A stretch of 64,000 nucleotides of DNA from a virus (IMGVR_UViG_3300008107_000017:64001-128000); one strand, 5' to 3'. Counted from the stretch's first letter, positions 4,266 to 16,190 are shown. Program-made: numbers and translations. Notes: a model not told the origin generated them from the letters alone.

Positions 4266-4469
4266 GAAAATCAAATTAACAAAGGATCAATCGTAACATA
4301 CCAAGGTGGATTCTACCGGGTATCAAACTGCACAAAGAATACGGTCAATCTAAAGTCTGTCTTTGGAAACCGAGTCTACTTCAAAAGTATTAAGCTTACT
4401 GAAGTTACAGAATCTGCTGCCGCATTCTATGAATACTGGTCTAAGTCTGAAACTTATCAATGCATGTAA
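4263..4469 (+). CDS. Small hypothetical (early) protein
   Basis: ATG directly after the repeated promoter module. Confidence 0.7.
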   Translation: MENQINKGSIVTYQGGFYRVSNCTKNTVNLKSVFGNRVYFKSIKLTEVTESAAAFYEYWSKSETYQCM

Positions 4470-4470
4470 T

Positions 4471-4698
4471 ATGATACGAGAAAAACACGAAAGAACTGGC
4501 CCTATAGTAATTGATCTTACAGGCCCTGATGGAAATGCATTCGCACTAATTGGTCTTGCACAAAACTTAGCAAAGCAATTAGGGTATCAACCGAATAGGC
4601 GCGGAGAACTTACCACTGAAATGATGAGTGGTGATTATGAACATCTCCTTCAAGTATTTGATCGCGAATTTGGTAACTTTGTAATTTTAGAAAGATGA
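4471..4698 (+). CDS. Small phage hypothetical protein
   Basis: ATG 2 nt after the previous stop; DLTGPDGNAFAL...SGDYEHL motif. Confidence 0.75.
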   Translation: MIREKHERTGPIVIDLTGPDGNAFALIGLAQNLAKQLGYQPNRRGELTTEMMSGDYEHLLQVFDREFGNFVILER

Positions 4699-4997
4699 AA
4701 ATAGAAATTGAAAAACTCAAACAGATTGAAAATGCCTTAGGGCAATTCGAGGTATGCCGTATCTTTGGTGGCGGTAATCATAATTACCTTCGCTTTGGGT
4801 ATTGGAGACCAACAGATTGGAAAACTCTTCAAGAAATCCTTGGTCATTCTATTGTGGTAGAAGAAGATTCTGACTATGATGATGACTGTGGGTGGAAGTA
4901 TTCCTATGTTCTATATGATCGTATGGAATGGGATATGATTCAAAAGAATCGCCGCGAACAAATGGAATCTTGGAGAGCTCCAGTAAACAATCGTTAA
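4695..4997 (+). CDS. Hypothetical protein
   Basis: ATGA overlap with the upstream gene. Confidence 0.7.
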   Translation: MKIEIEKLKQIENALGQFEVCRIFGGGNHNYLRFGYWRPTDWKTLQEILGHSIVVEEDSDYDDDCGWKYSYVLYDRMEWDMIQKNRREQMESWRAPVNNR

Positions 4998-5020
4998 CCG
5001 CGATTATATAAATAAAGGTA

Positions 5021-5036
5021 CGTTCTTTAACATATT
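5021..5036 (+). promoter_or_regulatory. boxA-like antitermination element upstream of tmRNA
   Basis: CGTTCTTTAACATATT resembles E. coli rrn boxA TGCTCTTTAACA; second copy at 5839. Confidence 0.6.
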
Positions 5037-5418
5037 GGGGGTGACCAGGTTTTGACGATTAAGCTGAAATTAGGTTACTGATGCAAGCAGGGTTAGATGG
5101 AAACCCTTAAACACCTATCGCACAATAAAAGGCGAAGAGAAATCTTCATTCACCTGGGAAGACGCAATGGCTTTCATTGGTGCTGATTACGCTGTAGCAG
5201 CCTAATCAGTCTCGCACTCATCGTGAGATATTAAAAAGAATGAGAATTCAAGGTCTCGTTCAGAGTACTACCTTATAAGTGAACTCGACATAGTTATTGG
5301 TAACGATGTCAAAATAGGAACCATTTATTTTGGCCATTAAGAAAAATGGCCTAAGCTTGTGAATGAGGGATTTAGGTTCCTTAGTCGGACATGGGTTCGA
5401 ATCCCATCACCTCCACCA
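5037..5418 (+). ncRNA. ssrA: tmRNA; tag reading frame 5131-5205 = GEEKSSFTWEDAMAFIGADYAVAA*
   Basis: 5' GGGGGTG pairs with 3' CACCTCC-ACCA including the G3.U Ala identity pair; GGTTCGAATCC T-arm; internal ORF ending YAVAA-stop. Confidence 0.95.
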
Positions 5419-5421
5419 AAA

Positions 5422-5477
5422 AGGATGCATACAGCAACTTTGGACTAGACTTGTAAACTACAACCCAATGCATCCTG
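5422..5477 (+). ncRNA. 56-nt AGGATRCAT-ACAGCAA hairpin element, copy A
   Basis: 9-bp closing stem AGGATGCAT/ATGCATCCT plus ACAGCAA; same length and ends as 6111-6166. Confidence 0.6.
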
Positions 5478-5482
5478 TTTCT

Positions 5483-5555
<73 letters not shown>

Positions 5556-5573
5556 CAAATTCTCACACATGTG

Positions 5574-5603
5574 AAACAAACACAATGTGAGTATATATAA
5601 ATA
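5574..5603 (+). promoter_or_regulatory. Putative promoter of the leader ORF
   Basis: AAAC(5574)-N17-ATATAA(5595), the class seen before many genes here; also contains TATAAATA (5596-5603). Confidence 0.55.
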
Positions 5604-5621
5604 ACAAATAAAACAATTTCA

Positions 5622-5717
5622 ATGCAACTGCACGGATGTACATATTGGATTCTTAGTAATGTGGAAAAGAATTTTCCGCAGGCGGATTCAATTACACCAA
5701 GTCCAGGCAGGAGCTGA
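5622..5717 (+). CDS. 31-aa leader peptide containing all 20 amino acids: MQLHGCTYWILSNVEKNFPQADSITPSPGRS
   Basis: Translated by hand (absent from the ORF track); A-rich 5' UTR, TGA-TAA double stop, terminator 24 nt downstream. Confidence 0.8.
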   Translation: MQLHGCTYWILSNVEKNFPQADSITPSPGRS

Positions 5718-5752
5718 TAAGATAAAACACTTATAATACTAAGCCTCCTGGA
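5702..5752 (+). promoter_or_regulatory. Putative antiterminator helix
   Basis: TCCAGG(5702-07)/CCTGGA(5747-52) plus AGG/CCT, or alternatively CAGGAG(5708-13)/CTCCTG(5745-50); inner helix ATAAG(5717-21)/CTTAT(5730-34). Confidence 0.65.
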
Positions 5753-5777
5753 TAAAAAATTCCGGGAGGCTTTTTTT
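5741..5777 (+). terminator. Intrinsic terminator (candidate attenuator) upstream of the tRNA array
   Basis: AAGCCTCCTGGA-8 nt loop-TCCGGGAGGC followed by T7. Confidence 0.9.
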
Positions 5778-5786
5778 ATGGGTCTC

Positions 5787-5817
5787 TTTCAGAAAAAGAT
5801 TGAATGAGTTATATTTG
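5787..5817 (+). promoter_or_regulatory. Host-type (Bacteroidota sigma-A-like) promoter
   Basis: TTTCAG-N17-TATATTTG; -7 element matches TAnnTTTG; same spacing at 8602, 16123, 4215, 47846, 52969. Confidence 0.6.
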
Positions 5818-5838
5818 TTTAGAATAGAATTTCAAATT

Positions 5839-5854
5839 CGTTCTTTGACATATT
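5839..5854 (+). promoter_or_regulatory. boxA-like antitermination element upstream of the tRNA array
   Basis: CGTTCTTTGACATATT, 15/16 identical to 5021-5036. Confidence 0.6.
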
Positions 5855-5865
5855 GAGGTACCAAC

Positions 5866-5951
5866 GGAAAGATGGTAGAGTTGGTTGATTACACCGGTCT
5901 TGAAAACCGGCATACCGCGAGGTATCGGGGGTTCGAATCCCTCTCTTTCCG
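5866..5951 (+). tRNA. tRNA-Ser(TGA)
   Basis: CCGGT-CTTGAAA-ACCGG, long variable arm. Confidence 0.95.
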
Positions 5952-5959
5952 CTTTAAAT

Positions 5960-6030
5960 TGCCCTCTCGTCTAATGGCAGGACATGTGGTTTTGGTCCAC
6001 AGTGTAGAGGTTCGAATCCTTTGGGGGCAA
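5960..6030 (+). tRNA. tRNA-Gln(TTG)
   Basis: TGTGG-TTTTGGT-CCACA. Confidence 0.93.
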
Positions 6031-6035
6031 CATAT

Positions 6036-6108
6036 AGGGAAGTAGCGCAGTTGGTAGCGCACCTGGTTTGGGACCAGGGGGTCGCAGGTTCGAGCCCTGT
6101 CTTCCCTA
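6036..6108 (+). tRNA. tRNA-Pro(TGG)
   Basis: CCTGG-TTTGGGA-CCAGG. Confidence 0.95.
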
Positions 6109-6110
6109 CA

Positions 6111-6166
6111 AGGATACATACAGCAAATTTTATCAAACTGCAACTTTGAAGCCAAAACGTATCCTG
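6111..6166 (+). ncRNA. 56-nt AGGATRCAT-ACAGCAA hairpin element, copy B
   Basis: AGGATAC/GTATCCT stem plus ACAGCAA; matches 5422-5477. Confidence 0.6.
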
Positions 6167-6172
6167 TATTTT

Positions 6173-6245
6173 GCCTCTGTAGCTCAGTTGGTAGAGCTAC
6201 TGATTTGTAATCAGTGGGTCGTAGGTTCGAATCCTATCGGAGGCT
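6173..6245 (+). tRNA. tRNA-Thr(TGT)
   Basis: ACTGA-TTTGTAA-TCAGT. Confidence 0.95.
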
Positions 6246-6257
6246 CAAACATTATTT

Positions 6258-6331
6258 GGTCCGTTCGTCTAATTGGTTAGGACATCTCCCTTTCACGGAG
6301 AAGCTTACGGGTTCGATCCCCGTACGGACTA
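6258..6331 (+). tRNA. tRNA-Glu(TTC)
   Basis: TCTCC-CTTTCAC-GGAGA. Confidence 0.95.
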
Positions 6332-6337
6332 CAACAT

Positions 6338-6412
6338 TGCGGGGTGGACTGGAGATGGTTCCAGCTCGGTCTCATAAGCCGAACCACATGGGTTCGATTC
6401 CCATCCCCGCAA
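6338..6412 (+). tRNA. tRNA-Met(CAT), initiator-like acceptor stem, atypical D-arm
   Basis: TGCGGGG/CCCCGCA acceptor; TCGGT-CTCATAA-GCCGA. Confidence 0.85.
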
Positions 6413-6416
6413 CAAA

Positions 6417-6512
6417 GGTGGTATCTAGACGAAAATGAAATTCCTGCTGTGAAGTCGACTTAATCAGCATATTCAGAAGTAGAAATGAAGGATCGCAAAT
6501 CTTTCGCCACCC
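6417..6512 (+). ncRNA. tRNA-like structured RNA without a canonical anticodon arm
   Basis: GGTGGT/GCCACC acceptor-like stem, T-arm-like AAGGA-TCGCAAA-TCTT, internal TGCTG/CAGCA stem. Confidence 0.45.
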
Positions 6513-6519
6513 TCTTATT

Positions 6520-6596
6520 GGCTCGTTAGTAGAGATGGTTACAATGTCGCCCTGTCACGGCGAAGGTCACGGGTTCGAGTCCCGTACGGGCCGCCA
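6520..6596 (+). tRNA. tRNA-Asp(GTC), CCA encoded
   Basis: TCGCC-CTGTCAC-GGCGA. Confidence 0.93.
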
Positions 6597-6601
6597 AAAA
6601 A

Positions 6602-6664
6602 TGCCGAGGTTAATGCATAACCTAAAGTAACACGTACGGTTACACAGTAGGAAGGCTACCTACA
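6602..6664 (+). ncRNA. Three-hairpin spacer RNA (C1)
   Basis: AGGTTA/TAACCT, GTAAC/GTTAC, GTAGG/CCTAC. Confidence 0.45.
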
Positions 6665-6668
6665 CTTT

Positions 6669-6742
6669 GGGGGTATAGCTCAGTTGGCTAGAGCATCTGC
6701 CTTGCACGCAGAGGGTCGTGGGTTCGAATCCCTCTACCTCCA
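6669..6742 (+). tRNA. tRNA-Ala(TGC)
   Basis: TCTGC-CTTGCAC-GCAGA; G3.U70. Confidence 0.95.
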
Positions 6743-6746
6743 CTAA

Positions 6747-6819
6747 GATCTCGTAGCTCAGTTGGTAGAGCAATACACTTTTAATGTATGGGCCGCGCGT
6801 TCGAGCCGCGCCGGGATCA
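6747..6819 (+). tRNA. tRNA-Lys(TTT)
   Basis: ATACA-CTTTTAA-TGTAT. Confidence 0.95.
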
Positions 6820-6826
6820 CAAAAAA

Positions 6827-6915
6827 ATCGTACATCATAGTTTTCCCGTTTAGGATGTAGCTATAAGATGTAAATGTGAAAGGCGCAATCACAGTAGGTT
6901 AAGCGATATCCTACA
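6827..6915 (+). ncRNA. Three-hairpin spacer RNA (C2)
   Basis: TACATC/GATGTA, TGTGA/TCACA, GTAGG/CCTAC; shares CACAGTAGG..CCTACA with C1. Confidence 0.45.
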
Positions 6916-6919
6916 ACTT

Positions 6920-7000
6920 GCCGAAGTGGTGGAATGGTATACACGCTGGTCTTAGGAACCAGTGCCTAACGGCTTAAGGGTTCGAGTCCCTTCTTCGGTA
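6920..7000 (+). tRNA. tRNA-Leu(TAG)
   Basis: CTGGT-CTTAGGA-ACCAG, variable arm. Confidence 0.95.
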
Positions 7001-7005
7001 CTAAT

Positions 7006-7080
7006 GCACCCTTAGCTCAGTGGGAGAGCATCTGCCTTACATGCAGAGGGTCGGTGGTTCGAAACCATCAGGGTGCACCA
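7006..7080 (+). tRNA. tRNA-Val(TAC), CCA encoded
   Basis: TCTGC-CTTACAT-GCAGA. Confidence 0.95.
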
Positions 7081-7197
7081 AGAGAGATAGTGAAGCTGTA
7101 TGATATGGTCTTAATCCCGCTGACTGTCAAAAAGGCATTAGGAGATTCAGATGTGTTGATTATATCACAGAATGCCCGAAAGACCCGAAGTCTCTCT
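7081..7197 (+). ncRNA. Rod-like structured RNA of unknown family
   Basis: AGAGAGA/TCTCTCT closing stem, asymmetric bubble, CTGTATGATATGGTC/GATTATATCACAG stem. Confidence 0.5.
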
Positions 7198-7202
7198 TTT
7201 AT

Positions 7203-7285
7203 TGGAAGGTGGGTGAGTGGTTAAAACCGGCAGACTGTAAATCTGCTCTCTTCGGAGTACGGCGGTTCGAATCCGTCCCTTCCAA
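7203..7285 (+). tRNA. tRNA-Tyr(GTA)
   Basis: GCAGA-CTGTAAA-TCTGC, variable arm. Confidence 0.95.
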
Positions 7286-7290
7286 CATTT

Positions 7291-7364
7291 GGACCTTTAG
7301 CTCAGTTGGTTAGAGCATCGGACTCATAATCCGCAGGTCGCAGGTTCGAGCCCTGCAAGGTCCA
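7291..7364 (+). tRNA. tRNA(CAT), probably Ile2 (lysidine type); elongator Met not excluded
   Basis: CGGA-CTCATAA-TCCG; GGACCTT acceptor resembles Ile2 tRNAs. Confidence 0.85.
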
Positions 7365-7369
7365 CATTT

Positions 7370-7442
7370 AGTCGATTAGTTCAATTGGATAGAACACTTG
7401 ACTACGGATCAAGAGATAAGGGTTCGAGTCCTTTATTGACTA
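7370..7442 (+). tRNA. tRNA-Arg(ACG)
   Basis: CTTGA-CTACGGA-TCAAG. Confidence 0.93.
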
Positions 7443-7447
7443 CTAAT

Positions 7448-7520
7448 GGTGATGTAGCTCAGTTGGTAGAGCAAAGGACTGAAAATCCTTGTGTCGGCGG
7501 TTCGATTCCGTCCATCACCA
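7448..7520 (+). tRNA. tRNA-Phe(GAA)
   Basis: AAGGA-CTGAAAA-TCCTT. Confidence 0.95.
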
Positions 7521-7522
7521 CT

Positions 7523-7599
7523 AAGTAATAGGTAAGCATCTAAGGGGTCTCCTATGTAATATTAGGGCGTGTCTAACCCAAAGCCTCTGCTTATTACTT
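7523..7599 (+). ncRNA. Structured spacer RNA with a 12-bp closing stem
   Basis: AAGTAATAGGTA/TGCTTATTACTT; inner CCTA/TAGG hairpin. Confidence 0.45.
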
Positions 7600-7603
7600 T
7601 TAT

Positions 7604-7675
7604 TCCTCGGTAGCTCAGAGGCAGAGCACATGACTGTTAATCATGGGGTCGGGATATCGTAATTCCCCCGGGGAG
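7604..7675 (+). tRNA. tRNA-Asn(GTT), atypical T-loop
   Basis: CATGA-CTGTTAA-TCATG; T-loop ATCGTAA. Confidence 0.88.
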
Positions 7676-7733
7676 CAAAAACGCTTAATAGAACAAAGTA
7701 CAAGTTCAGAACAGGGTGCGGGTCCTGTGACAT

Positions 7734-7807
7734 TGGAATATAGCTCAGTTGGTTAGAGCATTCGTCTGATACGCGAAGGGTCGGCAGTTCGAGTCTGCCT
7801 ATTCCAA
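7734..7807 (+). tRNA. tRNA-Ile(GAT)
   Basis: TTCGT-CTGATAC-GCGAA. Confidence 0.93.
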
Positions 7808-7812
7808 CACAT

Positions 7813-7887
7813 GGTGGTTATAGCTCAGTTGGTTAGAGCATCTGATTGTGGTTCAGAAGGTCGTGGGTTCGACTCCCATTAATCACC
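7813..7887 (+). tRNA. tRNA-His(GTG) with G-1
   Basis: TCTGA-TTGTGGT-TCAGA; G-1:C73. Confidence 0.95.
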
Positions 7888-7893
7888 CATAAT

Positions 7894-7964
7894 GGCACTA
7901 TGGCCGAGTGGTTAGGTGGAGGTCTGCAAAACCTTTCACACAGGTTCGATTCCTGTTGGTGCCT
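7894..7964 (+). tRNA. tRNA-Cys(GCA)
   Basis: GAGGT-CTGCAAA-ACCTT; U73. Confidence 0.95.
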
Positions 7965-7972
7965 CAATAAAT

Positions 7973-8045
7973 GCGTCTGTAGCTCAGTTGGTAGAGCACT
8001 GGTCTCCAAAACCAGGTGTCGGTGGTTCGAACCCATCCAGGCGTG
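7973..8045 (+). tRNA. tRNA-Trp(CCA)
   Basis: CTGGT-CTCCAAA-ACCAG. Confidence 0.95.
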
Positions 8046-8062
8046 CGAAATACATAAAATGA

Positions 8063-8512
8063 ATGAAGGTGTTTAGAAAGACAAATGGAGTCAAGGTTAA
8101 TGTGATAGATCACACCCTCGAGCAGTTAAAGAATTATCCTCATGCATCGATTCACATTGGAACCGATTCACAAAATCATGGTGATGTAACTATGTATAGC
8201 ACAGTGATAGCATATCGCTTTGGATCATCAGGTGTACATTATATTTTTACTAAACATAAAATGCCAAAGATCACTGATATGTGGACACGTCTTTGGAAAG
8301 AAGCCGAGATGAGTATTGAAACCGCTGAATGGCTTACACAACAGATTAATGTTAAGGTTCAAATTGATATGGACTATAACGGAGATGAAGAACACAAATC
8401 ATATAGAATTATTTCTGCGGCTAAAGGGTGGGCAAATTCTCTGGGCTATAAAGTAAATGTAAAACCTAACGAGCAAATTGCAACTCGTGCAGCTGATTAT
8501 TGCTGTAGATAA
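8063..8512 (+). CDS. RNase H-like YkuK-family protein
   Basis: IGTDSQ...RLWKEAEMS...IDMDYN...AAD motifs. Confidence 0.8.
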   Translation: MKVFRKTNGVKVNVIDHTLEQLKNYPHASIHIGTDSQNHGDVTMYSTVIAYRFGSSGVHYIFTKHKMPKITDMWTRLWKEAEMSIETAEWLTQQINVKVQIDMDYNGDEEHKSYRIISAAKGWANSLGYKVNVKPNEQIATRAADYCCR

Positions 8513-8513
8513 A

Positions 8514-8598
8514 GGAAGGTTACCCAAGTGGTGAAGGGGGCAGTTTGCTAAACTGTTAGGTCGGCAACGGCGCGAGGGTTCGATCCCCTCACCTTCCG
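8514..8598 (+). tRNA. tRNA-Ser(GCT)
   Basis: GCAGT-TTGCTAA-ACTGT, long variable arm. Confidence 0.93.
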
Positions 8599-8601
8599 CT
8601 C

Positions 8602-8632
8602 TTTCAGAAATCATATCTATGTATTATATTTG
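8602..8632 (+). promoter_or_regulatory. Host-type promoter
   Basis: TTTCAG-N17-TATATTTG. Confidence 0.6.
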
Positions 8633-8648
8633 AATAAATAGTTTAGGT

Positions 8649-8846
8649 ATGAAAAAGGATTTTATTTGGGTACGCAGGGTTATCCTAAACAAAGACAACA
8701 AGACCGTTCATTACGAGTCTTTGGTTAAACTTATTCATTTGTTTTCAGCAAAATGGAAACATAATGAAAAAGATCCACGATTTAGGGAAGCCTATAATTC
8801 ATATAAAGCCTTTCTGAAACTTACACTTAGACATCAATATAATTAA
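8649..8846 (+). CDS. Hypothetical protein
   Basis: ATG ORF after promoter. Confidence 0.6.
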   Translation: MKKDFIWVRRVILNKDNKTVHYESLVKLIHLFSAKWKHNEKDPRFREAYNSYKAFLKLTLRHQYN

Positions 8847-8870
8847 ACCAAACAGAGTTTTAGCATATAA
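8845..8870 (+). promoter_or_regulatory. AAAC-N16-ATATAA promoter (putative phage-sigma class)
   Basis: Same spacing at 8817, 12105, 13460, 37636, 39702, 45446, 58692. Confidence 0.6.
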
Positions 8871-8881
8871 AAATAAAAGGT

Positions 8882-10759
8882 ATGGCCGTAAGTGTAGAAA
8901 AGAGGTATCAAAAACTTACTGACACTGAACACGTTCTCCTTCGTCCAGGTATGTACATCGGTTCAATTAAACCGCATACCGAGGAAGTATTTCTTCTTAA
9001 CGAAAAGAAAGGTAAATTTGAACCTACGGAGATTACTTATAATCCAGGTTTCATAAAACTTTTTGACGAGATCGTATCAAATTCAGTTGATGAACATAAA
9101 AGAAATCCTCAACTTAACCAGATTAAAATTACTATTGATGAAGTATCTGGCAGAATATCAATCTGGGATAATGGAGGAATTCCTGTAGAGATCCATAAAG
9201 AGTACGGAGAATGGGTTCCAGAAATGATCTTTAGTAATCTTAAGACTGGTAGTAATTTTGATGATACTGAAGACCGTACTGTTGTAGGTACTAATGGTGT
9301 AGGTAGTACATTAACCAATATCTTTAGTAAAGAATTCAAAATTGAAACATGTGATGGTAAAAAATCATTTGTGCAGGTATTTTCAGATAACATGTCCAAA
9401 AAGACAGAACCTGTAATTAAATCACATAAGAAAGGCTATACTGAAATTTCTTATATTGCAGATTTTGAAAGATTTGGAATGAAGAAAATTGATAAGTCTT
9501 CTCTGCAAATGATTCAGAAAAGGCTTTATGATATTGCTGCATGTAATACTTTGCTTAAGATCTATCTTAATGATACCTTAATATCGTTTAAGAACTTTAA
9601 AGAATATGCAGATCTTTATACTGATAATGTTTTCTATGAACAGTCTCCTAATTGGAAAATTGGTATAGGACATTCAACATCAGGATTTAAAGCAATATCA
9701 TTCGTCAATTCGGTTGAAACAAAGGATGGTGGCACCCATGTTAATAATGTTACATTTCAAATCATCCAATACCTTAGAGAAAAGATTAAGAAAAAATATC
9801 GGGTTGATGTAAAACCAACCGATCTAAAACAACACATCTTTCTCTTTATTGATTGCACAGTTATTAATCCTGCATTCTCGTCTCAAACTAAGGAGAAACT
9901 CATTACTGAACCTAAAGACTTTGGGAGTATACATGAACTATCAGAAAAGATTCTTAAACAAGTATTTGCATCTGAAATCATCCAATCTGTTCTTGACTGG
10001 ATTGAAAGAAAGCAGGCAGCCGAAGAAAGAGCAAAACTTAGAAAATTAAATAATAACCTCGATAAGTCAAAGGTAATTAAATTAATCGATGCTAAGAAAA
10101 CCGGTGATAGAAAAAATTGTACTCTTGCAATATTTGAAGGTGACTCTGCATCCTCTGCGTTTCGTCGTTACCGTGATCCGCTAACGCAAGGTGCGTTTCC
10201 TCTTCGCGGTAAATTTATTAATGTAAGAGAGATTCCTGATTCAAAGGTGGTACAAAATAAAGAAGTACAATCTCTTATGGCTGCAATAGGATTAAAGATT
10301 GGTCATGAACCAAAGGACTTAAGATATGGTAAGATCTTATTCTATACTGATGCCGATGTTGATGGGAATTCAATTTCTGCATTGCTAATTAATTTCTTTG
10401 GTAAATATTGGCCTGAGTTATTTGAAGAAGGTAAAGTTCTTAAGGTAGAAACACCTCTTATGGTAGCAAAGAAAGGAAAGGAAACTTTAAGCTTTTATTC
10501 TGAAGAAGATTATAAAGAATGGGAGTTAAAACAAAAATCATTATCCTCATGGAATATTGAATATAAGAAAGGATTGGCTGCATTGGAGGACGATGAATAT
10601 CAGGAGATCATTAGAAGCCCTAGATCATACTTTCTTACCAGAGATAATGGATTTAACAGTACATTAAATATCTGGTTTGCAGGTGACTCTAGCCCTCGTA
10701 AAAAGAAGATTCTAGGCGAATCTGTTGAAATTAAAACAAGCAATAAATCTCTTTTCTAA
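8882..10759 (+). CDS. Type IIA DNA topoisomerase, ATPase/TOPRIM subunit (T4 gp39+60-like)
   Basis: LRPGMYIGS, EIVSNSVDE, GTNGVG, EGDSA, PLRGK, YTDADVDG, YKKGL. Confidence 0.97.
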   Translation: MAVSVEKRYQKLTDTEHVLLRPGMYIGSIKPHTEEVFLLNEKKGKFEPTEITYNPGFIKLFDEIVSNSVDEHKRNPQLNQIKITIDEVSGRISIWDNGGIPVEIHKEYGEWVPEMIFSNLKTGSNFDDTEDRTVVGTNGVGSTLTNIFSKEFKIETCDGKKSFVQVFSDNMSKKTEPVIKSHKKGYTEISYIADFERFGMKKIDKSSLQMIQKRLYDIAACNTLLKIYLNDTLISFKNFKEYADLYTDNVFYEQSPNWKIGIGHSTSGFKAISFVNSVETKDGGTHVNNVTFQIIQYLREKIKKKYRVDVKPTDLKQHIFLFIDCTVINPAFSSQTKEKLITEPKDFGSIHELSEKILKQVFASEIIQSVLDWIERKQAAEERAKLRKLNNNLDKSKVIKLIDAKKTGDRKNCTLAIFEGDSASSAFRRYRDPLTQGAFPLRGKFINVREIPDSKVVQNKEVQSLMAAIGLKIGHEPKDLRYGKILFYTDADVDGNSISALLINFFGKYWPELFEEGKVLKVETPLMVAKKGKETLSFYSEEDYKEWELKQKSLSSWNIEYKKGLAALEDDEYQEIIRSPRSYFLTRDNGFNSTLNIWFAGDSSPRKKKILGESVEIKTSNKSLF

Positions 10760-12102
10760 TGGAAAAAAGAACAGTAACATCATTCTTTGATAAAGAATAT
10801 TTGGAGTATGCCAAATATGTTGTAGAAAATCGTGCAATCCCTAGCTGTATTGACGGTCTTAAACCAACACAACGGAAGGTCGTTTTCGTGGCAAATAAAA
10901 TCTGGAAAAATGGAGCAGAAAAGCCAATGAAACTATTCCAACTTGCAGGCCGTGTAGCGGCAGAGGCATATTATCATCATGGTAATACTTCCTTGGAATC
11001 TGCTATGGTTGGTATGGCACAGAAGTTTAAGAACTCTTTACCTCTTTTGGATGGCATTGGCCAATTTGGATCTTTACGTTCCCCTTCTGCCGGTGCACCT
11101 CGTTACATCAGTGCAAAATTACATCCTAATTTTAGATTAATTTATCAGGATTTTGACCTTCTTAATAATAAGATTGAAGAAGGTGTAGAAATTGAACCAG
11201 ACTTCTTTCTTCCTATCGTTCCAACCGTTATCTTAAATGGATCTTCTGGTATTGCTGTAGGATTTGCAACTAACATTCTTAATCGTAATCCTAAAGATGT
11301 AGTTGAAGCATGTTTGGCCGTTCTTAAGGATAAGAAGATTAAAACACTTCCTCCTTGGTTAAGTGAATTTAAGGGATCATTTACTAGAGATCCTGGTAAT
11401 CCTAATACGTGGAAGATTAGTGGATCATATGAAATAGTAAATAGTACAACAGTAAAAGTAACAGAAATTCCACCTTCATTTACTTATGAGAGATATGAAG
11501 AGTGGTTAAACGCTCTGGTTGATAAAAAGATCATTGTTGATTATGAAGATAATTCATCAGATAAAATTGAATACCTTCTTAAATTTCAACGAGCAATTCT
11601 TAAGGACTATATTTCAAAGGATAGACTAGAAAATCTGTTAAAGATTCATTCACAAGAAACTGAAAACCTTACCACTATCGATGAGACTGGTAAATTAAAG
11701 ATCTTTACCAAAGCTGAAGATATTGTAACCCACTTTGTTGGAATAAGACTTCAGTATTATCATAAGAGAAAGGCCTATCTTCTTGATAAATTAGGAAGAG
11801 AGCTTCTTATCATATCAAATAAGGCAAGATTCATTAAAGATATTATTGAAGGAAAACTTAAGGTAAATAATGTAGCAAAAGATATCATTGTTAAATACCT
11901 GGAAGATAACAAATATGATAAGATTGATGGTTCATATACATACCTATTAAGTATGGCAATCTATTCATTAACTAAGGAGAGATTTGAAGAACTACTTAAA
12001 CAAAAAACAGAAAAGGAATCTGAGGTAGAAGCCATTAAGAAAACTGATCCTAAGGACATGTATATAACTGATCTTGAACAATTGAAAAAATCATTAGGGT
12101 AA
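10759..12102 (+). CDS. Type IIA DNA topoisomerase, breakage-reunion subunit (T4 gp52-like)
   Basis: DGLKPTQRK, YHHG, APRY catalytic Tyr, GIAVGF. Confidence 0.97.
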   Translation: MEKRTVTSFFDKEYLEYAKYVVENRAIPSCIDGLKPTQRKVVFVANKIWKNGAEKPMKLFQLAGRVAAEAYYHHGNTSLESAMVGMAQKFKNSLPLLDGIGQFGSLRSPSAGAPRYISAKLHPNFRLIYQDFDLLNNKIEEGVEIEPDFFLPIVPTVILNGSSGIAVGFATNILNRNPKDVVEACLAVLKDKKIKTLPPWLSEFKGSFTRDPGNPNTWKISGSYEIVNSTTVKVTEIPPSFTYERYEEWLNALVDKKIIVDYEDNSSDKIEYLLKFQRAILKDYISKDRLENLLKIHSQETENLTTIDETGKLKIFTKAEDIVTHFVGIRLQYYHKRKAYLLDKLGRELLIISNKARFIKDIIEGKLKVNNVAKDIIVKYLEDNKYDKIDGSYTYLLSMAIYSLTKERFEELLKQKTEKESEVEAIKKTDPKDMYITDLEQLKKSLG

Positions 12103-12141
12103 TGAAACTTATTAAGATACTTCAATATAAAAAATAAATCC

Positions 12142-16103: not shown

Positions 16104-16190
16104 AAAAAAGTCTACGAAAAATTTTCAAATCTCGTTTTTTTGTTTTATATTTGTACTGATGGTATTTTTATACTGTCTTAAAACAATGAT

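Follow-up and report, generated by a model that had tools for sequence, protein, structure and literature searches.

The reasons for which phages carry transfer RNA (tRNA) genes, and the conditions under which the genes are put to use, have long been in question; proposals include a match to codon usage, making good the decay of host tRNAs, and evasion of tRNA-cleaving defenses. The question is raised here by a 64,000-nucleotide (nt) stretch of viral DNA (IMGVR_UViG_3300008107_000017:64001-128000; hereafter, the window), from a 139.8-kb IMG/VR virus record with an estimated completeness of 45%, in which a 309-nt spacer (positions 5557 to 5865) ahead of an array of tRNA genes holds a short open reading frame (ORF) and a terminator. 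What does such an element do in front of tRNA genes? The evidence set out below leads us to think that positions 5571 to 5777 are probably a ribosome-mediated transcription attenuator heading the array, with a leader ORF that would report the decoding of the codons read by the array tRNAs. If this is true, the phage gauges decoding capacity itself and doses its tRNAs, and the question of phage tRNA genes becomes a testable regulatory circuit.

The core of this interpretation, i.e., a leader with nearly all amino acids coupled to a terminator/antiterminator before tRNA genes, had been put forward by a model from the DNA alone, with no database searches (the sequence-only reading). That core survives every comparative test run here, but a second promoter-like motif behind the terminator (P2) makes it unlikely that the element is the sole gate to the array. 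The parts from the leader's own promoter-like motif (P1) to the array are as follows.

5571 to 5601, plus strand: promoter-like motif P1 (GTGAAACAA, 13 nt, ATATATAAA), ending about 20 nt before the leader ATG; recognized by its conservation
5622 to 5717, plus strand: leader ORF with 31 codons, a TGA stop, and all 20 amino acids; translation, open in relatives
5644 to 5691, plus strand: predicted stem-loop inside the ORF body; minimum-energy folds, with a hairpin predicted at the same place in the related lineages L003, L006, and L042
5702 to 5711, plus strand: antiterminator 5′ strand, formed by the last ORF codons and pairing with 5744 to 5752; folds, shuffles, and alignment
5717 to 5734, plus strand: antiterminator inner helix, ATAAG with CTTAT (5717 to 5721 with 5730 to 5734); fold
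5741 to 5777, plus strand: intrinsic terminator with a stem of 12 base pairs (bp) (5741 to 5772), an 8-nt loop, and a T-run to 5777; scan, fold, and alignment
5787 to 5817, plus strand: second promoter-like motif, P2 (TTTCAGAAA, 13 nt, TTATATTTG), resembling the Bacteroidota −33/−7 type; motif search
5827 to 5839, plus strand: small hairpin GAATT-TCA-AATTC directly before boxA, in what would be the boxB position; fold
5840 to 5855, plus strand: boxA of the type found in ribosomal RNA (rRNA) operons (GTTCTTTGACATATTG); consensus match
5866 to 8046, plus strand: array of 20 tRNA genes (tRNA-Ser, then 19 more); tRNA and Rfam calls

Leader composition and alternative RNA folds

Re-translation of the ORF returned the 31 residues given by the sequence-only reading, and its counts held on recounting: residues 1 to 10 are all different, 19 kinds of amino acid occur in the first 22 residues (Arg alone missing), and codons 1 to 23 comprise 22 different codons, AAT being used twice. 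In the 139.8-kb record, this is the only one of 751 ORFs of 25 to 40 amino acids to contain all 20 kinds; elsewhere the maximum is 18 and the mode 13 to 14. About 2 Mb of other viral loci contained no unrelated ORF of up to 36 amino acids with all 20 kinds.

Related contigs, collected via flanking proteins, provided seven distinct versions of the 31-codon ORF. All seven are open and encode 20 kinds each, with 8 synonymous and 11 nonsynonymous codon changes among them. Single-copy residue kinds were hit by only two of the nonsynonymous changes, K16I and F18L, both in the L006 lineage and both offset within the same sequence, by N17K and I24F. L006 holds all 20 kinds despite 17 base changes, an outcome reached in 0.8% of trials (0.008) when 17 changes were made at random. 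The distant relative L042/L142, whose flanking exonuclease is 68% identical, has at the same place a 34-codon ORF with 32% identity; the ORF is thus open in all relatives, with length changes in frame (31 versus 34 codons). The L042 leader, which heads an array of 28 tRNA genes, has 10 residues in common with the window peptide; Cys, His, Phe, Lys, and others have moved, and all 20 kinds are again present (chance, given the 10 shared residues, 0.005 to 0.01). For L006 and L042 together, the chance of keeping the full set is about 4e-5 to 1e-4. Whether composition rather than sequence is conserved had been asked by the sequence-only reading, and in these diverged leaders it is. We regard this comparison of relatives as the decisive evidence, and it indicates that the all-20 composition is under selection.

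Other searches for the leader family marked its limits. A promoter-plus-ATG pattern search of viral contigs and metagenome contigs returned the same three lineages only, and a 15-mer scan of viral contigs gave mostly chance matches; a motif match in L123, L131, L149, and L161 was dismissed as chance because it lies inside coding sequence. In L008 to L012, L031, L032, and L038, the examined stretch contained no comparable ORF, and the element may sit elsewhere in those genomes. Among GenBank phages, nothing resembled the locus beyond tRNA-Gly, two other leader families likewise had no match, and no cultured phage was found that could serve as a test system.

A terminator scan recovered the strong intrinsic terminator that had been noted behind the ORF and showed it to be the sole strong one between 4600 and 9000. 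Seven of its 12 stem pairs are G-C, it reaches −22.4 kcal/mol when folded alone, and in an alignment of five sequences all of its cells are paired, with two compensatory pairs. Folding also confirmed that the last codons are complementary to the terminator 5′ arm and, together with the ATAAG/CTTAT inner helix, allow two mutually exclusive folds, as the sequence-only reading had it. The pairing of 5702 to 5711 with 5744 to 5752 consists of 6 bp, a bulged C, and 3 bp, and the alternative fold amounts to −15.9 kcal/mol. An inner helix of differing sequence occurs at the same place in the window, L006, and L042; L002 and L003/L109 fold otherwise there. In every lineage, the RNA preceding the terminator 3′ arm folds with the last ORF codons on the terminator 5′ arm. 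In the window group, shuffling the dinucleotides of the upstream 50 nt gave a less stable antiterminator in 99% of cases, and 97.5% of the antiterminator cells are paired in the five-sequence alignment. One arm base, changed from G to A in L042, is compensated in both the terminator and the antiterminator partners (C-G to U-A in the antiterminator), a double compensation that is suggestive support for a switch.

Would a translating ribosome decide between the two folds? When a ribosome mask was slid along the leader, as the sequence-only reading had proposed, the antiterminator kept 8 to 9 arm bases with the A site at codons 2 to 25, was weakened from codon 26 on, and was lost once the mask reached codons 30 to stop, where 3 arm bases were left. 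The resulting sensing stretch takes in 19 kinds of amino acid in the window, all but Arg, and 18 in each of L006 and L042. The stop codon is 23 nt from the terminator stem. In Escherichia coli, a ribosome at a stop codon represses a nearby terminator, and termination is maximal beyond about 30 bp (PMC4824070); by analogy, the 23-nt gap would fit a position at which a terminating ribosome no longer represses the terminator. The leader RNA 5′ end is A-rich and unpaired in the folds, as suits Bacteroidota, and the stem-loop predicted within the ORF (5644 to 5691) may be a pause or timing hairpin. Full-length folds of all lineages also show a weak pairing of the classical protector type, in which the beginning of the ORF meets its end, and we base no claim on it.

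Leaders ahead of other phage tRNA arrays

Viral contigs were scanned for T-runs with GTTCTTTGACA no more than 8 nt behind them, and of the 108 distinct T-run plus boxA sites obtained, 106 had enough upstream sequence. At 29 of the 106, a tRNA array follows. A strong hairpin is present at 27 of these 29 array sites, and an ORF of 19 to 60 amino acids ending 20 to 38 nt before the stem also at 27, compared with 4 of the 77 sites without tRNAs. The sequence-only reading had suggested a search of related jumbo phages for short ORFs upstream of tRNA arrays. The leaders belong to a dozen or more families with no evident mutual similarity, and for 18 of 25 distinct leaders, at least 95% of shuffles pair less well with the terminator 5′ arm than the upstream RNA itself does. 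Leader diversity can be high, as in L296 (20 kinds in 31 residues) and in L301 and L316 (19 kinds each). In L301, a second T-run plus boxA occurs at 4414 within the tRNA array; the ORF upstream of it overlaps tRNA-like sequence and departs from the leader pattern, and an internal boxA is the probable explanation, not a second attenuator.

Leader and array repertoires were compared in 16 leader/array pairs, comprising 14 chosen loci that cover the leader families plus the window and L142. Leader ORFs were picked by a fixed rule blind to the arrays, and where a locus ends within an array, the test can only lose strength. Of 184 array amino acid kinds, 7 were missing from the array's own leader, versus 34.3 ± 5.0 after re-pairing of leaders and arrays (20,000 trials, none below 16); excluding the near-complete leaders gave 7 of 107 versus 26.3 ± 4.2. 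Leaders and arrays also correlate in their numbers of kinds (rank correlation, 0.84), and the spread in leader diversity is accounted for by the array that each leader precedes. The match extends to codons: a codon cognate to the array anticodon is present in the array's own leader for 169 of 187 anticodons, versus 149.0 ± 3.7 when synonymous codons were redrawn from local usage. In the window, 18 of 19 anticodons are served in this way, and in L142, 20 of 21. The anticodon most often unserved is that of tRNA-Arg (ACG): the leaders of the window, L235, L251, L270, and L296 use AGA/AGG or no Arg. Taken together, these comparisons indicate that the leader is tailored to the tRNA set behind it and that a complete array goes with an all-20 leader. 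We lean toward a wider reading in which each phage array carries a bespoke test ORF mirroring its anticodons, so that the array would be transcribed, in a closed loop, only if decoding fails; this would be a widespread and as yet unpublished principle.

In the mechanism that we infer for the window, RNA polymerase would start at P1 or arrive from an upstream transfer-messenger RNA (tmRNA) unit and transcribe a short A-rich 5′ end followed by the 31-codon ORF, which would be translated. A ribosome running smoothly to the stop codon would cover 5702 to 5715, the terminator would fold, and transcription would end at the T-run. A ribosome slowed or stalled within about codons 2 to 25, for want of any of 19 kinds of charged tRNA, would leave the last codons free to pair with the emerging terminator 5′ arm, and no terminator would form. 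The polymerase would then pass into boxA, where it would take on host rRNA-type antitermination factors, and on into 21 tRNA genes. More tRNA would mean faster decoding, which would close the switch in a negative feedback loop. The quantity read out would presumably be the speed of decoding, regardless of what slows it; the sequence-only reading's link to anticodon nucleases is speculation. If the mechanism is true, leader-peptide attenuation is not confined to amino acid synthesis and single amino acids but also reaches tRNA genes and the full set of 20, phages borrow a host rRNA antitermination signal and place it behind a conditional terminator, and a compact natural part of about 200 nt reports a shortage of almost any charged tRNA, or global decoding capacity.

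The second promoter, competing accounts, and known systems

P2, which the sequence-only reading had pointed out as a caveat, is present. The motif recurs at 8602 to 8632, right after the last tRNA gene, and the pattern TTT[GC]-N18-20-TAnnTTTG has 10 matches in the window versus 3.1 expected. P1, for its part, has one exact match in the window, and both of its blocks and their 13-nt spacing are unchanged in all four lineages, including L042. A P2-like motif, TTTCA(G/A)A, spacer, TTATATTTG, was also seen at 16123 to 16153.

Several observations weigh against read-through attenuation as we propose it. The 62 nt between the T-run and boxA carry the conserved P2 motif, and in L042 three tandem promoter/boxA-like repeats lie between terminator and array, so that most transcription of the array in this lineage may start beyond the terminator. 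Across lineages, the antiterminator is weaker than the terminator (−12.6 to −16.9 versus −18.5 to −22.5 kcal/mol); the L042 antiterminator is marginal, beating 93% of shuffles (P = 0.07), and antiterminator covariation among the 5 sequences was reached by 90 of 500 shuffles and is not significant alone, its support being thin because the collections searched contain only three lineages of this leader family. In L042, Cys and Asn lie outside the sensing stretch. The sole Arg codon of the window leader, AGG at codon 30, is within the antiterminator strand and is mismatched to the phage tRNA-Arg (ACG); the earlier caveat that Arg would go unsensed for this reason is upheld by the ribosome-mask folding. 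Lastly, several leader families are of ordinary diversity (e.g., L116, with 10 kinds in 19 residues), so the all-20 composition is not a rule of the class and goes with complete arrays. With P2 and boxA placed between terminator and array, the attenuator is probably one of two inputs; the sequence of the region suggests that the window's array probably has a second, unconditional input in P2, in which case control may be partial.

Could the ORF sense decoding and the output be something other than read-through? The array would then be transcribed from P2, and the leader unit would make a short RNA that reports by its amount, its stability, or an action in trans; alternatively, the polarity would be opposite, or Rho or ribosome coupling would be at work. 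P2 belongs to a recurring class of promoter-like motif and follows the terminator, as do the three repeats of L042, and a terminator more stable than its antiterminator would also suit this account. An action in trans is known from other bacteria for terminated attenuator RNAs, as described for rnTrpL (PMC6614838). At the 29 other loci, in contrast, the terminator abuts boxA and the array, a promoter has no room, and only read-through can express the array. The spacing from stop codon to terminator and the antiterminator are, moreover, conserved, as a read-through switch predicts. We consider this account unlikely.

Somewhat more doubtful still is an ordinary small gene, for a protein or an RNA, that sits with its own promoter and terminator beside the tRNA genes, the terminator ending the upstream tmRNA/tRNA-Gly unit and insulating the array promoter. 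The unit does have its own promoter-like motif and a strong terminator; the spacer (5557 to 5865) folds much better than shuffles (z = −6.2); some leader residues are invariant (M1, Q2, T7, Y8, W9, E15, Q20, D22, G, and R); and the leader nucleotide sequence is strongly conserved among close relatives. A small gene leaves unexplained, however, that all 20 kinds are retained, with rare residues at new positions, across 68% sequence divergence, that unrelated leaders hold the amino acids and codons of their own arrays, and that the ORF ends 20 to 38 nt before a terminator with a pairable arm. An Rfam search of 4500 to 9000 (E up to 1) gave no match above noise in the spacer, the matches being ncr1575 (E = 0.47), L10_leader (0.57), and mir-7180 (0.43). 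A plain small-RNA gene was rejected on account of the all-20 conservation, the leader/array match, and the ORF-terminator spacing. Chance, i.e., an unselected short ORF that happens to contain 20 kinds next to a terminator, draws on a look-elsewhere effect (the analytic probability of all 20 kinds in 31 residues, 3e-4, is only marginal taken alone, given hundreds of such short ORFs per genome), but is very improbable in view of the set kept jointly in L006 and L042, the compensation of both losses of single-copy kinds, and the class-level tests (architecture at 27 of 29 sites, repertoire, and anticodon match).

Read-through attenuation, the reading that we prefer, belongs as a mechanism to the classical leader-peptide attenuators. 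A full-text literature search returned no account of leader-peptide control of tRNA genes, phage or cellular. Like trpL, hisL, pheL, thrL, leuL, and the multivalent ilvGMEDA leader of E. coli, the phage element has a short leader ORF whose 3′ part can pair with the terminator 5′ arm. The amino acid operon attenuators let ribosome position pick terminator or antiterminator, as the phage element would, and their regulatory codons match the product of the controlled genes; an intrinsic terminator, a mask-sensitive antiterminator, and codons matching the product of the controlled genes are all found in the phage element. The amino acid operon attenuators control biosynthetic enzymes, whereas the phage element precedes tRNA genes. 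The phage leader is without single-codon runs and uses nearly each amino acid once or twice, hence would be a broad sensor. Unlike them, it lies in a Bacteroidota phage and is followed by an rRNA-type boxA, and there is no sequence relation. The Rfam amino acid leader families (Trp_leader, His_leader, Thr_leader, Leu_leader, and others) had no match between 4500 and 9000 at E up to 1, for which reason a known Rfam leader was rejected.

Aminoacyl-tRNA synthetase genes are controlled by tRNA charging through the pheST leader attenuator, which uses Phe codons only, and through T-box riboswitches, which bind one uncharged tRNA directly and need no ribosome. To our knowledge, neither the pheST leader nor T-boxes control tRNA genes. 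A T-box was rejected because none was matched in the same Rfam search.

The closest published analogue is the upstream ORF (uORF) of the actinobacterial whiB7/wblC genes, which, like the phage leader, encodes many kinds of residue. The Mycobacterium smegmatis whiB7 uORF encodes 19 of the 20 amino acids, its composition sets what is sensed, stalling leads to antitermination, and removal of its Trp or His codons abolishes the response to the matching starvation (PMC10274678). The sequence-only reading knew of no described one-of-each sensor; the whiB7 uORF (PMC10274678) is a partial precedent. The gene under the control of the whiB7 uORF encodes a transcription factor acting in antibiotic and stress responses, whereas the phage output would be tRNA supply itself, a direct feedback loop; and the whiB7 uORF is enriched in Ala and free to vary in composition between species, whereas the phage leader has one Ala and a composition tied to its array. 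Membership in the whiB7/wblC family was rejected because the downstream genes are tRNAs, there is one Ala, the host signals are those of Bacteroidota, and no homology was seen; the two would only work alike.

boxA and the neighboring features of the locus

Farther afield, the following features, all on the plus strand, flank the element and its array.

4983 to 5013, plus strand: promoter-like motif of the leader's class (GTAAACAA, 13 nt, TTATATAAAT), 8 nt 5′ of boxA and tmRNA; read from the sequence
5022 to 5036, plus strand: boxA-like element GTTCTTTAACATATT, directly 5′ of the tmRNA; sequence match
5037 to 5418, plus strand: tmRNA gene; ARAGORN and Rfam RF00023 (110 bits)
5483 to 5556, plus strand: tRNA-Gly (GCC), 5′ of the leader and thus outside the gated array; tRNA and Rfam calls
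8514 to 8599, plus strand: tRNA-Ser (GCT), the 21st tRNA, 3′ of an RNase H-like ORF; tRNA call

The sequence-only reading had placed the element immediately before 21 tRNA genes. Its count was correct, but it had overlooked the tmRNA and tRNA-Gly genes directly upstream, which put the element within a longer stable-RNA region, as well as the boxA at 5840 to 5855. The tmRNA and tRNA-Gly share the leader's promoter class: L003 has the exact motif GTGAAACAA-N13-TATATAAA ahead of its boxA and tmRNA, and the window copy there is slightly degenerate. The boxA consensus stands at the 5′ end of both stable-RNA units, which are laid out as promoter-boxA-RNA (tmRNA) and promoter-ORF-terminator-boxA-RNAs (tRNA). 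Since the same promoter motif serves boxA and tmRNA without an ORF/terminator cassette, the cassette gives the impression of a regulatory module that has been inserted.

Over 17 nt, the relatives' boxA matches that of many Bacteroidota rRNA spacers exactly. This 17-mer, GTTCTTTGACATATTGG, occurs exactly in >120 genomes, almost all of them Bacteroidota (e.g., Pedobacter, Mucilaginibacter, and Chitinophagaceae), and of 81 cases inspected, 41 have it in the rRNA spacer behind tRNA-Ile/tRNA-Ala. The identity supports a Bacteroidota host and, likewise, use by the phage of the host rRNA antitermination system. In rRNA operons, boxA antitermination is nucleated by NusB/NusE; the phage boxA differs in lying 3′ of a conditional terminator, so that the complex would load only on polymerases that are past the attenuator.

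Some further features of these loci were noted. The tag predicted for the tmRNA (5037 to 5418), which is preceded by the leader-class promoter and boxA, is long, with 24 residues and the ending YAVAA. Between tRNA-Trp and the last tRNA-Ser of the window (8063 to 8512) lies the gene for a 149-amino-acid RNase H-like protein (Pfam PF04308), which is kept at the same place in related phages; tRNA genes are present in 11 of 19 related loci found with that protein. In L042, the repeats (11400 to 11860) are about 120 bp each, with a promoter-like TTGATTATATTTA and a boxA-like CGTTCTTTAAAAA, and recall tandem rRNA promoters. They are followed by about 260 nt (11870 to 12135), between boxA and the first called tRNA (Gln, 12139), with no tRNA or Rfam call; an atypical tRNA or a structured RNA that escaped recognition may lie there. 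In the window, a hairpin at 5562 to 5591, directly 3′ of tRNA-Gly, overlaps the upstream half of P1 and has an invariant loop, AAACAAA. The sequence of its outer stem varies and the pairing is kept in the lineages in which it adjoins tRNA-Gly; it is absent in L042. This hairpin may be a processing or protein-binding site.

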